Assembly: GCA_048571215.1 (NCBI GenBank)
Contig: CP182352.1
Span: 1,248,001 to 1,312,000, forward strand
Direction of reading: 5' to 3'
Length of the DNA stretch: 64,000 nucleotides
DNA from: Halarcobacter sp.
GTDB lineage: Bacteria; Campylobacterota; Campylobacteria; Campylobacterales; Arcobacteraceae
Below, piece after piece: positions 59,492 to 64,000 of this stretch (within the stretch, counting starts at the first letter, position 1; every line of letters begins with the position of its first letter). The notes beneath the pieces are model-generated. The model was not told the DNA's origin and ran no database searches. It saw nothing but the letters and a program-made list of their open reading frames with translations. Position numbers and translations under genes: made by a program.

Positions 59492-59767
59492 TTATATCAA
59501 TTCTATTTTTAACTCTTTACCTAAAACATTGGCAAAACTTTGTAATGTAGATACTTTTATATCTTGGGCATGGTTTTCTATTCTTGATATAGCAGATTTT
59601 TTAGTATGAAGTTTAGCTGCTACTTCATCTTGAGTTAATCCTAACTCTTTTCTAGTAATTTTTAGTAACTCCCCTATTTTGAAATCTTCATATCCATTAT
59701 CAAAGTTTTTTGAAAACTCTTTATCTGTCTTTTTTCTTTTCTTAATATATCTATCTAAATCATCCAT
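59492..59767 (-). CDS. XRE-family HTH antitoxin
   Basis: RKELGLTQDEVAAKL.TKKSAISRIEN; downstream of and overlapping the toxin. Confidence 0.88.
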   Translation of the reverse strand: MDDLDRYIKKRKKTDKEFSKNFDNGYEDFKIGELLKITRKELGLTQDEVAAKLHTKKSAISRIENHAQDIKVSTLQSFANVLGKELKIELI

Positions 59768-60101
59768 TTAAATACTCCATCATTCTTTTTTGAGCTAATA
59801 ATATCTCTTTTCTAGGAATTTTTTGGTCTTTTTTTCTAAAACCATTTGTCAAAACTATTATTTTATCTTTGTGTTCAAAGCCTAAAAATCTAAAGTTATT
59901 GTTGCCATGTTGAACACGAACCTCTATAATATTATTACTATTGGTAAGTCTTTTTAAAAACTTACTTGAAACAATATCCGATTCTCTAATAAGTTTAAAC
60001 ACCCAAAGAACTTTTTGAACATCTTTAGCAGATAAAGAGTCTAAAAAATCATCAATAGGTGATTTCCCTAGTTTAGTCTTATAAAATAATATCTTTTTCA
60101 T
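59760..60101 (-). CDS. RelE/HigB (Gp49-like) toxin
   Basis: SPIDDFL, EVRV, R, VLTNGFRKK.QK.P..EI..A. Confidence 0.85.
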   Translation of the reverse strand: MKKILFYKTKLGKSPIDDFLDSLSAKDVQKVLWVFKLIRESDIVSSKFLKRLTNSNNIIEVRVQHGNNNFRFLGFEHKDKIIVLTNGFRKKDQKIPRKEILLAQKRMMEYLNG

Positions 60102-60144: not shown

Positions 60145-61056
60145 TCAACTTATCCTTTCTAAAATATCAAAACTTTTTATATCCATCTTTGAAAAAGCAA
60201 ACCACTTTTTACCTAAGTCTTTTAGGCTTGCTCCTATATGATAAATCTCTTTATCATCAAGTATCAAAAACCTATCGTGGGAGTTTTCAAACTTTTTTAT
60301 CTCTATTTTTTTATATTGTGAATTGTATTTTTTAAAGTCTAGATTTAGTTGTTTTGAGATATTTTTAGTATATATGGTTACATCTACATTTTGATTTTTT
60401 GAAAATAATGTTAAGACACTATCATCCACATAGTTATCTATAAGTATTATTTTACTTTTTGCACTTCTTATTAAATCAGATACAAAAATATAGGCATCAA
60501 ACATTTGCCCGTCGTAAAATATTCCTTGTTTTGGTTTGATTGTTTTATCTTCTAGTGCATCAAAAAGTTTTTCAAATTTTTCATCTGTTTTTATTTCATA
60601 AGATATTTGCCTTTTTTCAACTAAATCAAGTCTTTTAAATATATCACCATTATGAGACAAAAATTGTCTCATCTTTACAAAACTATTTATGATATGGATA
60701 CTTGTCTGAATAGCTTTATCACTTTTAAGCACTGCTGAAAGCATTGAAACACCCTGCTCTGTAAATACATATGGTAAATATCGTCTTCCTCCATGATTTA
60801 AGGTCACACTTTGTGACCTTAAAGAATCATTTGAACTTGAGGCCGCAAATTGCGACCTCAAGTTTTGATATTCTTTTTCAGTAAGTTGAAAACGAAACTG
60901 TTGGGGAAATCGTGCAATATTTCTTTTTACTTGTTCATTAAGTCTTTTAGATTCCACATCATAAAGTTTTGCTAAGTCACTATCAAGCATCACCTGTACA
61001 TTTCTAACTGTATATATCTTGCTTTTTATATCCTCATCAATTATTAGTTCATTCAT
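60145..61056 (-). CDS. ORF6N-domain protein with C-terminal PLD-like domain
   Basis: IYTVRNVQVMLDSDLA.LY.V....LNEQVKRN..RFP..F.FQLT; PYVFTEQGVSMLS.VL.S; C-terminal IDNY..HDRFLILD...HIGASLKDLGKK. Confidence 0.88.
   Translation of the reverse strand: MNELIIDEDIKSKIYTVRNVQVMLDSDLAKLYDVESKRLNEQVKRNIARFPQQFRFQLTEKEYQNLRSQFAASSSNDSLRSQSVTLNHGGRRYLPYVFTEQGVSMLSAVLKSDKAIQTSIHIINSFVKMRQFLSHNGDIFKRLDLVEKRQISYEIKTDEKFEKLFDALEDKTIKPKQGIFYDGQMFDAYIFVSDLIRSAKSKIILIDNYVDDSVLTLFSKNQNVDVTIYTKNISKQLNLDFKKYNSQYKKIEIKKFENSHDRFLILDDKEIYHIGASLKDLGKKWFAFSKMDIKSFDILERIS
60797..60864. repeat. Two tandem intragenic palindromes (39-bp period) in the ORF6N gene
   Basis: TTTAAGGTCACA-CTT-TGTGACCTTAAA (60797-60823) and AACTTGAGGCCGCAA-A-TTGCGACCTCAAGTT (60834-60864). 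Confidence 0.9.
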
Positions 61057-61211
61057 ATCACAGCCTTTATTTGAAATAAATATATCTATTATTTTTCTAA
61101 TATAGAAAAATATTAAATGGATAATAACATTAAAAAATATATTTATTTAAATATATTACAGATTGTAATATCTAAGAAGTTTTAATAAAATAGTAGAAGA
61201 TTAAATATTTA

Positions 61212-61595
61212 TTAATCACAAATAGGATTCAAGATATAAAAATCACACTCTTTATCTTTACTTATATAATCTTCATCTATTCTCAAATCACAAGACAAAT
61301 CTTCATAAAGTGCTTTTTCATCTTTACATACAAGAACTACAGTGATTTTATTTTCATACTTGATCTTTAAATCATAATCTTTAAAACTTTCCATTAGAAT
61401 AGGATTTTTAGTAGTCAAAAACTCTTTTATTTCGGATACTTCAATACCTCTTCTTTTGATTGCACTATTTGCTCTTTTTGTTAGGTTATTCAACTTAGGT
61501 TTTAATTCAATTAAACTATCATTTTTTAAAGAGCAGCCAGTAATTAAGTTAGCTACAAAAACAATCAATAAACTTCTTAGTAATATCTTTTTCAT
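61212..61595 (-). CDS. Lipoprotein of unknown function
   Basis: Start at 61595 after AAGGGA; MKKILLRSLLIVFVANLITG-C lipobox; four further Cys near the C-terminus. Confidence 0.75.
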   Translation of the reverse strand: MKKILLRSLLIVFVANLITGCSLKNDSLIELKPKLNNLTKRANSAIKRRGIEVSEIKEFLTTKNPILMESFKDYDLKIKYENKITVVLVCKDEKALYEDLSCDLRIDEDYISKDKECDFYILNPICD

Positions 61596-61606
61596 ATTAT
61601 TTCCCT

Positions 61607-62545
61607 TTATGCCCAATACTCTAATTTATCAGATGATGTTTTACCATTATCTAAGTTCCAATCTGCAAAATATTCTAAATGACTATTTCCATTGCCATAT
61701 ACTGCTTCATCTAAAACCTTCCAAGTTTGTTGCACTTGAGATACTGCTTTATTAAAAATATCATCATAATGCATAGTTTTATTACCTGGAACTTCTAGAT
61801 TCTCGATATACTCTTCAATGTTAACTTCTTCAGATTTAGGATATATTATTCCACCATCTAATCCTATAACATGTCTTGATATAGTAGGAAAGTTTTGAGT
61901 CTCTTCCACTGTCGATACTAAAGTATGAAATCTACTATGCCAAGTATCAAATTCTGGTTTATTGGTTAAGTATTCTTCATTATTTAATTCTTCTAACATC
62001 TTTCCCCATACTGAAGAGATAACTTTATTTAGCTTGTCAGTATCTCCATTATGACTACACTCTTTTCCAAATAAAGATAATTGTTCAGTTTCAGAAATAT
62101 CTCCATATCCTGTAATCTTTTTATAGATATAAACATCTTGATGCATTTCACAGTTTCTATGAGCTGATTCATGTCCTTCATATGGTCCAACTTTTAACTC
62201 AACAACAGGATGAATAACTACATCGGTAACAATATGCCCAGCAAGTCCACAAAGCCATGCAAAAGCTTTTCTTTTATCTTCTTCATCTTCTATTGCTTTA
62301 ACTTCTTCGATACCTTTTAAAATAAAAGATTTTGTTTTCATATCTAGGTGCATTGAGTCTGCCCATTTTTTATGTTTTTCTGTAAATGCTAGATATGGAT
62401 AATCTGGACTAACAGAACCCAACTCTATAAAGGTTGTATATTCTTCTAATGCTATGAGGGAATCATTACTAAGTCCTAACTCTTCTAATTCGTTTTCAGT
62501 ACATGCCTTATTTACTATTGTTAAGTGTGCGTATGCTCCTGCCAT
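61607..62545 (-). CDS. Zinc-dependent phospholipase C-family protein
   Basis: N-terminal AH, GSVSPD, MH, GHIVTD..IHP, H..CE...D Zn-ligand pattern; no signal peptide. Confidence 0.78.
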   Translation of the reverse strand: MAGAYAHLTIVNKACTENELEELGLSNDSLIALEEYTTFIELGSVSPDYPYLAFTEKHKKWADSMHLDMKTKSFILKGIEEVKAIEDEEDKRKAFAWLCGLAGHIVTDVVIHPVVELKVGPYEGHESAHRNCEMHQDVYIYKKITGYGDISETEQLSLFGKECSHNGDTDKLNKVISSVWGKMLEELNNEEYLTNKPEFDTWHSRFHTLVSTVEETQNFPTISRHVIGLDGGIIYPKSEEVNIEEYIENLEVPGNKTMHYDDIFNKAVSQVQQTWKVLDEAVYGNGNSHLEYFADWNLDNGKTSSDKLEYWA

Positions 62546-63606
62546 TATTTTTCCTTTTTGAATTTATTTTTATTTATTGCTATATGAAATATTTTTTTTC
62601 TATATGTGCTCATCTTATGGTCTGCTGGAATATTTGCAAAAGGTGCTTTTTTAAATAAATATGCACGTATTCTTCTTGTAAAGCTAACGGAATAAAGTAA
62701 TCTGGCTTTTTCATAATCTCCATTTTCAATATTAGTTAAGTATCTCATATATCCAGTATGAGAATAATCTTTAAAATGTCTTTTTAAATATTCACTAACA
62801 TTATCACCAATATAAGGTACAAATTTTAATACAAAAGTTAAAGTATCCATTACTTCAGCTCCCGGAGGTAACATAGTTACTGGATCTGCTGAATTTACTA
62901 TTCTGTAAACAGGTGTTTTAATTCCTAACATCCAATCTTCATCAGCTACTCGAGGTGAACCAAAGGTATAACAAGCTGCTATTTGACTATGTAATAATTT
63001 TTTTGTTGCAACTGTTGCTAAAGCTCCACCTAAACTATGTCCTGTAATTAGAAGTGGTTTATCTTGACAATTTTCATTAATGTAGTCCTGAATCTCATCT
63101 TTAATCACATCAAATGCCTTGCTAAAGCCTTGATGAATTTTACCTTCAGTATTACACTTTATTTGATTAGCTTTCAAATCTGCTTTTAAATCTTCTATAC
63201 TAGTTGTTTCTGTTCCTCTAAAAACTAAAAAATAAAAGTCTTTAGAGGATACAATCATCGCTTGTGTTCCATTTTTATCAAAAAGCTTTTTAACTTCTAG
63301 TTTTAAAAACTTTAACTCATTTTTCAACTTCTCTTTTTCTTCATTGTTATCATAAGACAATAAATCAATAAGTTTATAAAGTGAACTAACTCTTTTTTGA
63401 TCTACTAATTTTGTAACTTTTTTAATTAAATCTTTATTAGAAATATCAATAATTGGTTCATTAAATTTTAAATAAACTAAGTCAGATAAACATGCACATA
63501 TGAAACAGGTTCTATCACTATAAGCTTCTCTATATACGGGTAGTTCTTTTAATACTAATTGTTGAAGATTCTTTTCTTCTTCACTATTTTGGGCAAGTAT
63601 TTGCAT
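62545..63606 (-). CDS. Class 3 lipase (alpha/beta hydrolase)
   Basis: FRGTE, HQGF, GHSLGGALA, TFGSPRV, RIVNSADPVT..PP, DH.M..Y; no signal peptide. Confidence 0.9.
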   Translation of the reverse strand: MQILAQNSEEEKNLQQLVLKELPVYREAYSDRTCFICACLSDLVYLKFNEPIIDISNKDLIKKVTKLVDQKRVSSLYKLIDLLSYDNNEEKEKLKNELKFLKLEVKKLFDKNGTQAMIVSSKDFYFLVFRGTETTSIEDLKADLKANQIKCNTEGKIHQGFSKAFDVIKDEIQDYINENCQDKPLLITGHSLGGALATVATKKLLHSQIAACYTFGSPRVADEDWMLGIKTPVYRIVNSADPVTMLPPGAEVMDTLTFVLKFVPYIGDNVSEYLKRHFKDYSHTGYMRYLTNIENGDYEKARLLYSVSFTRRIRAYLFKKAPFANIPADHKMSTYRKKIFHIAINKNKFKKEK

Positions 63607-63675
63607 AATTTTATTTCCTTTATACTCTATAAAGAGTTTTATTTATAAGGAAATTGTACAATTTGTAAAAACGGT

Positions 63676-64000
63676 TTAATCCGTTTTAAAGTAATGAGAT
63701 AAATCAGTATTCTTATAATCACTTATTTGTTGAATTATTTTTGTGTTTAAATCATTAGGTGAAATCACTTTAATAAATGGTAAAAATTGTTGAATTGTAG
63801 GTATTATTTCCATATAGTCAGTTACTGTAATTTGCATTATTTTATAGTTTTCATCCTCTGAGCTTAGAATAATTTGATTTTTTGAAAGAGGACAGCGTTC
63901 AAAATATTGAACAATTTTTTTATGAATAAAAAGCTCAATTATTTTCGATTCTTTATCCTTAAAATAAGCATTAATCGCTGAATCAAGCTTTATATTAACA
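63676..64000 (-). CDS. WYL-domain transcriptional regulator, C-terminal (WCX) part; 5' end outside window
   Basis: Not in ORF track. Open frame 63999 to 63676: ...IELFIHKKIVQYFERCPLSKNQ...MEIIPTIQQFLPFIKVISPNDL...*, matching the typical WCX pattern (YF...P....Q; EI...i....p.i.VisP..L). Confidence 0.72.
   Translation of the reverse strand, partial: VNIKLDSAINAYFKDKESKIIELFIHKKIVQYFERCPLSKNQIILSSEDENYKIMQITVTDYMEIIPTIQQFLPFIKVISPNDLNTKIIQQISDYKNTDLSHYFKTD

Follow-up and report, generated by a model that had tools for sequence, protein, structure and literature searches.

Paired genes for a Zn-dependent phospholipase C-like enzyme and a lipoprotein at the end of a Halarcobacter defence island

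The window analysed here, a 64,000-nt stretch of a Halarcobacter sp. genome (contig CP182352.1, positions 1,248,001 to 1,312,000) that is assembled as one contig and 100% complete (genome G000), ends in a row of genes for a WYL-domain regulator, a class 3 lipase, a Zn-dependent phospholipase C (PLC)-like enzyme, and a small lipoprotein, every one of them on the minus strand (Table 1). The conserved unit in this row is the nearly obligate pair of the PLC-like enzyme, hereafter PLC, and the lipoprotein; the four genes are real but are not one system, having come together by chance where a defence island ends. The literature searches found no description of the pair, though supplementary tables of defence and toxin screens might list it. 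The question posed by the pair is how an enzyme without a signal peptide meets an exported partner in bacteria that have no type VI secretion system (T6SS).

The pairing was followed through 85 PLC loci, made up of the source locus, eight loci from its family (Arcobacteraceae, 184 genomes searched), and 76 loci from the best 80 of 308 genome hits, four of which were duplicates; the sample thus consists of the hits closest to the query and is not random. The lipoprotein gene stands directly after PLC in 83 loci, with a 4-nt overlap in 36 of these, and the other two loci stop no more than 2 nt from the edge of a contig, so that the link of the lipoprotein to an enzyme proposed in a first-pass annotation of this DNA holds in 83/83 evaluable cases. 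For the lipoprotein profile 64 of these loci were used, and the remainder match it at E <1e-30 except for one cut by a contig end. In the reciprocal search, the pattern for which was derived from paired copies and is therefore biased toward pairing, PLC lies directly upstream in 66 of 69 metagenome lipoprotein loci, two of the remaining three being at contig edges and one an orphan. Among the family genomes ten carry the lipoprotein, nine together with PLC and one as an orphan, and a single lipoprotein copy is present in 46 of 50 carrier genomes; the four extra copies comprise two with a PLC of their own, one at a contig edge, and a C-terminally extended fusion with no PLC upstream. Orphan lipoproteins are few (G143, G200, and L210).

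Judged by record titles, the pair occurs in Campylobacterota, Beta- and Gammaproteobacteria, and Desulfobacterota, the closest PLC homologs being labelled Malaciobacter, Aliarcobacter, and Halarcobacter, and one copy is carried on an Aliarcobacter plasmid. A midpoint-rooted tree, to which no formal test was applied, has the Nitrosospira set as monophyletic and the Desulfobacterota sequences scattered. In 62 of 76 loci the gene upstream of PLC either has the opposite orientation or is separated from it by more than 60 nt, and the pair is therefore usually its own unit. Single-protein and alignment searches returned no PLC relatives in viral contigs, no PHROG family was found for PLC or the lipoprotein, and no longer fused forms of PLC were found, which is weak evidence.

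The enzyme scores 76.5 bits against the PF00882 profile, the curated cut-off of which is 26.8. The N-terminal motif [PSA]-[GA]-x-[YF]-[AT]-H comes immediately after a start codon in 84 of the 85 loci, most of them with a Shine-Dalgarno-like run, which leaves no room for a signal peptide in these copies; in the 85th locus the motif is not in frame. Residue 2 is always small, as suits removal of the initiator Met, and in solved PLCs and P1 nucleases the mature N-terminus is itself a Zn ligand. D48, H66, H104, D108, H112, H129, E133, C132, and C163 are invariant in 240/240 sequences and H7 in 239; with the individual ligands taken by analogy with the PLC/P1 fold, as is assumed here, the alignment shows that PLC keeps an intact set of likely Zn ligands. 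The structural model (predicted local distance difference test, pLDDT, 88) aligns from residues 1–3 onwards with the PLCs of Listeria, Clostridium, and Bacillus at VIA Z 8.6–8.7 (root-mean-square deviation, rmsd, 3.8–4.5; 168–175 residues aligned) and with three S1/P1 nucleases at Z 5.1–5.7, compared with at most 3.8 for unrelated rows. A sequence search of the PDB gave no PLC match, and Foldseek returned nothing at E ≤0.001 for the PLC or the lipoprotein model. Bacillus cereus PC-PLC, Listeria PlcB, the N-domain of clostridial alpha-toxin, and S1/P1 nucleases thus share the fold and have a matching His/Asp/Glu set, at 12–17% identity and with Z scores that are middling for a helical protein. 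The enzyme differs from solved PLCs in having neither signal nor propeptide and in its obligate lipoprotein partner, its substrate being a prediction, and the pair offers a first way into the signal-less members of PF00882, a large branch that lacks annotation.

About 99% of rows show a lipobox Cys in the lipoprotein (LITGC in the window, where the first-pass annotation had also seen a lipobox), and four Cys are conserved, at positions 90, 102, 117, and 126. Asp never occurs at position +2, which by the enterobacterial rule would presumably mean sorting to the outer membrane. The family, 480 clusters at 50% identity, is nameless, with no Pfam match above E 0.07, no NCBIfam, and no PHROG entry; some of its members are DUF2914 fusions without the lipobox Cys. 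The lipoprotein model (pLDDT 87) gives a weak pilin-head-like match, best to PilA4 (Z 6.9, rmsd 4.3, 116 residues aligned), and Z 4–5 to many pilins, but inositol phosphatases score alike, and the signal is a lipobox rather than a prepilin signal; a match of 0.84 to an Atlas GspG cluster is a lead only. An extended form of the locus (L018, L030, L032, L052, L156, and L226) has the lipoprotein followed by, or fused to, DUF2914 and then a 350-aa membrane protein with three helices and no known family.

The lipoprotein is predicted to bind PLC. ESMFold2 gives the complex a score of 0.82 in three runs, with contacts that agree to at least 77% and a partner pLDDT of at least 68; the best of three controls scores 0.01. 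Of 157 solved complexes, 116 reach the mark for this score, as do 2 of 215 mismatched pairs, a calibration that is only roughly applicable, own alignments having been used here. No similar complex was found in PDB searches, so that a pass from the predictor's memory is unlikely. The predicted interface is made up of PLC residues 15–17, 27–38, 145–148, and 154–167 and the N-terminal helix of the lipoprotein. Among the top 30 inter-protein covarying pairs from 80 paired loci, seven fall in this interface, where 0.34 would be expected, and with 121 pairs the count is 9/30, dropping to 0–1 after the partners are shuffled. Covariation and complex score together support binding of the predicted kind. 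The PLC side of the modelled interface is more variable than the protein average (entropy 2.30 vs 1.73), as for a lock-and-key pair.

The interpretation preferred here, which is plausible but tentative and is drawn by analogy with PhlA/PhlB or Tle/Tli, is that PLC attacks membranes and the lipoprotein is its cognate neutralising partner. The functional unit would then be a mobile two-gene cassette for a Zn phosphodiesterase and a dedicated exported lipoprotein, bound one to one. Removal of Met would free the N-terminal amine that the fold uses as a Zn ligand, and C132 and C163, the invariant columns of which give no covariation signal, would form a disulfide, allowing the enzyme to mature only outside the cytoplasm. 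It would leave the cell by a route that is obligatorily neither T6SS nor flagellar, such as lysis, vesicles, or the machine of whichever host carries it, and would hydrolyse the membrane phospholipids of competitors or grazers, while the lipoprotein would capture it in the periplasm of the producer or its kin and keep their membranes safe. In the source genome the cassette would have been inserted downstream of a lipase gene and a WYL gene to which it is unrelated, where a defence island ends. The reasons for favouring neutralisation are the order of the genes, enzyme first and lipoprotein second, their pairing, the absence of a signal peptide from the enzyme, the predicted binding and covariation, the patchy spread, the scattering of Desulfobacterota in the tree, and the plasmid copy, to which are added the existence of a few orphan lipoproteins and a Tle1-like DUF2235 gene that directly follows the lipoprotein in seven Comamonadaceae loci (L035, L038, L053, L062, L069, L074, and L075); no TssC match was found in the six genomes with this gene that were tested. 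If neutralisation is right, phospholipase and immunity protein would form a pair that works independently of T6SS, and the searches made found no such pair with this fold.

Several observations weigh against a neutralising partner. No export route for PLC was found: TssC is present in 11 of 50 other carriers and in 4 of 9 from the family; no gene for VgrG, PAAR, Hcp, or an adaptor occurs among 327 neighbour representatives (three genes on each side in the 85 loci); and FliE is common but not universal, occurring in 47 of 59 carriers, with the completeness of the other 12 unstated. The PLC fold also includes nucleases, and hydrolysis of phospholipids is predicted only. The presumed Zn ligands are absent from the residues listed for the predicted interface, the variability of which may reflect nothing but surface exposure. 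The 41 new pairs taken alone give 2/30 in the covariation analysis, the sequences of which overlap the input to the predictor. Throughout the monophyletic Nitrosospira set the pair is found at a single site next to housekeeping genes. It is common for immunity genes to be solitary or arrayed, and here orphan lipoproteins are rare (1/67) and most carriers, as given above, have a single copy.

Known enzyme-partner pairs provide the closest comparisons, and the pair works like them yet differs in the features that define both Tle/Tli and PhlA/PhlB. In Tle/Tli the gene downstream of the phospholipase encodes an exported immunity protein, in many cases a lipoprotein. The first-pass annotation had offered a Tle/Tli-like set as its alternative, and of this the effector-immunity logic fits PLC and the lipoprotein, with a signal-less phospholipase and a downstream exported cognate binder (the binding being predicted), but the secretion system does not, G000 having no TssC, Hcp, VgrG, or PAAR. 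Most carriers likewise have no T6SS, there is no linkage to vgrG or PAAR, the catalytic fold is another, and orphan or tandem partner genes are almost lacking. Tle1 of enteroaggregative Escherichia coli depends on VgrG (PMC10433429). An orphan T6SS effector-immunity pair, constituting a new Tle/Tli class, is rated as highly improbable: its architecture fits and TssC is found in the stated four of nine family carriers compared with 28 of the 184 family genomes overall, but besides the complete G000 genome 39 of the 50 other carriers lack TssC, many of them incomplete metagenome-assembled genomes (MAGs), and no scanned locus has a spike or adaptor gene adjacent.

In Serratia PhlA/PhlB (PlaA/PlaS) and Yersinia YplA/YplB, as here, a phospholipase gene is followed at once by a dedicated partner gene; PhlB binds PhlA to give an inactive complex and shields the producing cell, and secretion is flhD-dependent (PMC3039968). 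PhlA is a Ser-hydrolase phospholipase A1, for which the same review describes an N-terminal signal, whereas the enzyme here has the Zn-PLC fold and an N-terminus that is probably catalytic. PhlB is unrelated to the lipoprotein, neither a GXSXG phospholipase A1 nor a PhlB-like partner was found in the pair, and the GHSLGG lipase of the window is not the lipoprotein's conserved neighbour. As to a flagellar link like that of PhlA, FliE is lacking in the 12 carriers of unstated completeness named above, and sigma-28 motifs, like those of sigma-54 and LexA, were found upstream of PLC in 0/84 loci.

The lack of an identified export route can also be read differently, with the two proteins produced on different sides of the inner membrane and meeting only at a breach or through an undescribed signal-less export, the lipoprotein activating or anchoring the enzyme rather than inhibiting it. 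This is possible but rather doubtful; if true, it would mean a trip-wire for membrane integrity during phage attack or a new way to place a signal-less enzyme in the envelope, that is, a new defence trigger or a new export route. The second form, an obligate heterodimer in the envelope that would serve in phosphate or lipid scavenging or envelope remodelling, with the lipoprotein as its anchor or activating subunit and a catalytic subunit held at the membrane after reaching the periplasm or surface by the undescribed route, is unlikely. It would account for the near-strict one-to-one pairing in both directions and the prevalence of single copies, for a predicted interface that omits the Zn site, for invariant Cys pairs in both proteins, for the stable Nitrosospira synteny, and for the 42 of 68 loci with no recognisable defence, toxin-antitoxin (TA), or mobile gene within three genes. 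However, no transporter or regulator is co-conserved with the pair across clades, RR occurs in 3 of 83 lipoprotein signals only, which excludes Tat hitch-hiking, and the pair has a patchy distribution, with enrichment in hotspots of defence and mobile genes. Solved PLCs have a plain signal peptide, and the same would be expected of a scavenging enzyme.

The surroundings of the pair bear on the first form. Pfam hits within three genes of the pair were classed by hand at E ≤1e-12 in 68 loci, 17 with fewer than four neighbours being dropped, and were compared with 24 fixed-coordinate regions of carrier genomes. A defence gene is near the pair in 15/68 loci and 0/24 controls, a defence or TA gene in 20/68 and 0/24, and a defence, TA, or mobile gene in 26/68 and 1/24. 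The enrichment is real but partial, would fit any mobile cargo, and is inflated by related loci; with 15 of 68 loci having defence neighbours, most lie outside defence islands. These counts favour an anti-phage mechanism in which the enzyme waits inactive in the cytoplasm until phage injection or a holin opens the inner membrane, whereupon it would meet the periplasmic lipoprotein and oxidising conditions, be switched on, and destroy the membrane of the infected cell. Such a mechanism would explain binding across compartments without an export route. Hachiman or OLD-UvrD genes accompany the pair where it recurs in an sbcCD/DUF2779 hotspot, and on a plasmid it follows ThiF-JAB genes. The mechanism is nevertheless quite unlikely, given that 53 of the 68 loci have no defence neighbour, that such hotspots gather mobile cargo of any kind, that the relatedness of the loci overstates the enrichment test, and that PLC has no PADLOC model. 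A check against PADLOC 2.0 in fact gave no family for PLC or the lipase and one weak partial match for the lipoprotein (E 0.001).

Other placements of the pair were recorded. ThiF/E2 and JAB genes directly precede it on the Aliarcobacter plasmid (L164:9814-13335) and on two MAG contigs (L100 and L005), with no cyclase gene seen beside them. At L097:10493-12046 the pair follows a TnsE-like gene, which suggests that it is carried by a Tn7-like element.

The first-pass annotation had joined all four genes into a WYL-induced system in which diacylglycerol produced by PLC is broken down by the lipase. Its description of the parts was accurate, including the 69-nt gap between the WYL gene and the lipase, the GHSLGG motif of a class 3 lipase (residues 189–194), the TAATG overlap that couples PLC to the lipase, and the absence of a signal peptide from both hydrolases, neither of which begins with a hydrophobic stretch (the highest 15-residue hydropathy close to the N-terminus is 0.97 and 0.74, compared with 2.45 for the lipoprotein). 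The trio of lipase, PLC, and lipoprotein, in contrast, is not co-conserved, which the annotation itself had named as grounds for refutation: a profile of the window lipase and seven relatives matched in 0/84 other PLC loci and in 0/69 metagenome lipoprotein loci. In the family genomes the PLC query matched ten (nine full-length, one weak) and the lipase 17, with full PLC and lipase together in G000 only; the five closest lipase orthologs in the family are all in genomes without PLC, and orthologs at 56–66% identity have varied gene contexts. The lipase has S191, D241, and H330 invariant in eight aligned relatives.

Similarity at the DNA level to relatives is confined to a block of about 1.37 kb that covers PLC and the lipoprotein only and stops a few codons inside the lipase, the individual blastn blocks (L093–L097, L100, and the plasmid locus L164) being 1342–1373 bp long at 81–92% identity and ending 1–31 nt upstream of the PLC ATG. 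In G150 an identical TAATG overlap links DUF2779 to PLC. With DNA similarity ending close to the overlap and the same overlap occurring with DUF2779, it is best read as the junction of a mobile cassette. Co-transcription of the four genes in this strain is plausible from their common strand, the 69-nt gap, the 1-nt overlap, and the lack of a terminator-like site, and one relative has the order DUF2779-WYL-x-lipase (L132) and another DUF2779-WYL-x-PLC-lipoprotein (L023). The separate family distributions of lipase and PLC, the 0/84 count, and the G150 overlap nonetheless leave the WYL-controlled two-step module with no conserved linkage of lipase or WYL to PLC; it is already largely refuted as a conserved system, and its operation is very unlikely.

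Lipase orthologs (L129:6083-7009, L130:5180-6127, L133:6589-7701, and L134:8205-9254) adjoin uncharacterised genes for exported- or lipoprotein-looking products without a Pfam match, of 203–211 aa plus a 98-aa gene downstream or of 350–371 aa upstream. The lipase may have a partner of its own that is missing from the source genome.

Table 1. Genes and features at the end of the window (positions count from its first nucleotide)
Feature	Position	Strand	Remarks
WYL-domain regulator, 3' third	63676-64000	-	whole gene 315 aa, runs 623 nt past the window
Class 3 lipase	62545-63606	-	353 aa, no signal peptide; PF01764 E 5.9e-25 (Lipase_3); independent cargo
Zn-dependent PLC/P1-fold phosphodiesterase	61607-62545	-	312 aa, no signal peptide; PF00882 E 3e-21 (Zn_dep_PLPC); pair member
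Small lipoprotein	61212-61595	-	127 aa, lipobox Cys21, predicted PLC binding partner; pair member
PLC-lipoprotein DNA cassette	61202-62570	-	blastn blocks common to other Arcobacteraceae; PLC ribosome-binding site inside last lipase codons
ORF6N protein	60145-61056	-	PF10543 E 4.8e-33; PADLOC candidate PDC-S05; island cargo beside pair
Toxin-first RelE/HigB-like (Gp49) toxin and helix-turn-helix (HTH) antitoxin	59492-60101	-	PF05973, PF01381; neighbouring cargo

The frame at the window end was correctly taken for a WYL gene. The full-length product matches Pfam WYL at E 2.4e-10 (40.7 bits, cut-off 21.8) and PADLOC WYL at E 3.7e-19, the piece within the window giving a weak WCX match (E 0.007). 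Upstream and on the same strand follow genes for a 1601-aa RecQ-UvrD fusion, DUF2779, HamB, HamA, a radical SAM protein, AAA_28, and a dCTP deaminase, and then sbcC and sbcD, so that the defence context proposed earlier stands: a genuine defence island has the PLC locus at its downstream end. BrxR/CapW-type WYL regulators co-localise with diverse defence systems (PMC9122601), and the protein here, of about 315 aa and inside a defence island, resembles them. It differs in that its gene lies near the island end behind a DUF2779 remnant, has no clear operator, and is unlinked to the cargo. The best inverted repeat upstream is 9 bp with a mismatch in AT-rich DNA, none being clear, and although WYL relatives occur in 65 of the 184 family genomes, lipase, PLC, or lipoprotein lies within 1.5 kb in 0/29 of the loci fetched.

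The DUF2779 remnant, a 3' end of 43 codons at L001:6643-6771 just past the window end, between the RecQ-UvrD and WYL genes, is 79% identical to the intact gene. DUF2779 or its pieces flank the pair in L093–L095, L098, and L023, and it looks like a cassette-exchange point of the hotspot.

Within the locus stretch no terminator-like site was found, and promoter-like sites are no more frequent than expected by chance. The lipoprotein ATG lies 11 nt past the PLC stop, and a 134-aa TTG frame in the list of open reading frames is probably not the true lipoprotein start. RNA evidence amounted to one run (word share 0.06) with a single 251-nt contig across the lipoprotein gene, and was set aside and not used. 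On the far side of the pair, the HigBA-like TA genes and the ORF6N gene named in the first-pass annotation are both recovered by Pfam, and homologs of the RelE/HigB-like and HTH genes also stand just after the pair in L094 and L095. The ORF6N protein matches PDC-S05 over its full length (E 2.3e-128), with three further ORF6N relatives elsewhere in the genome. Further into the island, the fusion of RecQ and UvrD helicases (L001:6815-11620) has no PADLOC model that covers the whole, and the dCTP deaminase (PADLOC dCTPase E 4e-101), AAA_28, and radical SAM genes stand in a row upstream of Hachiman (L001:16705-20000), possibly as one unit for nucleotide depletion or modification.

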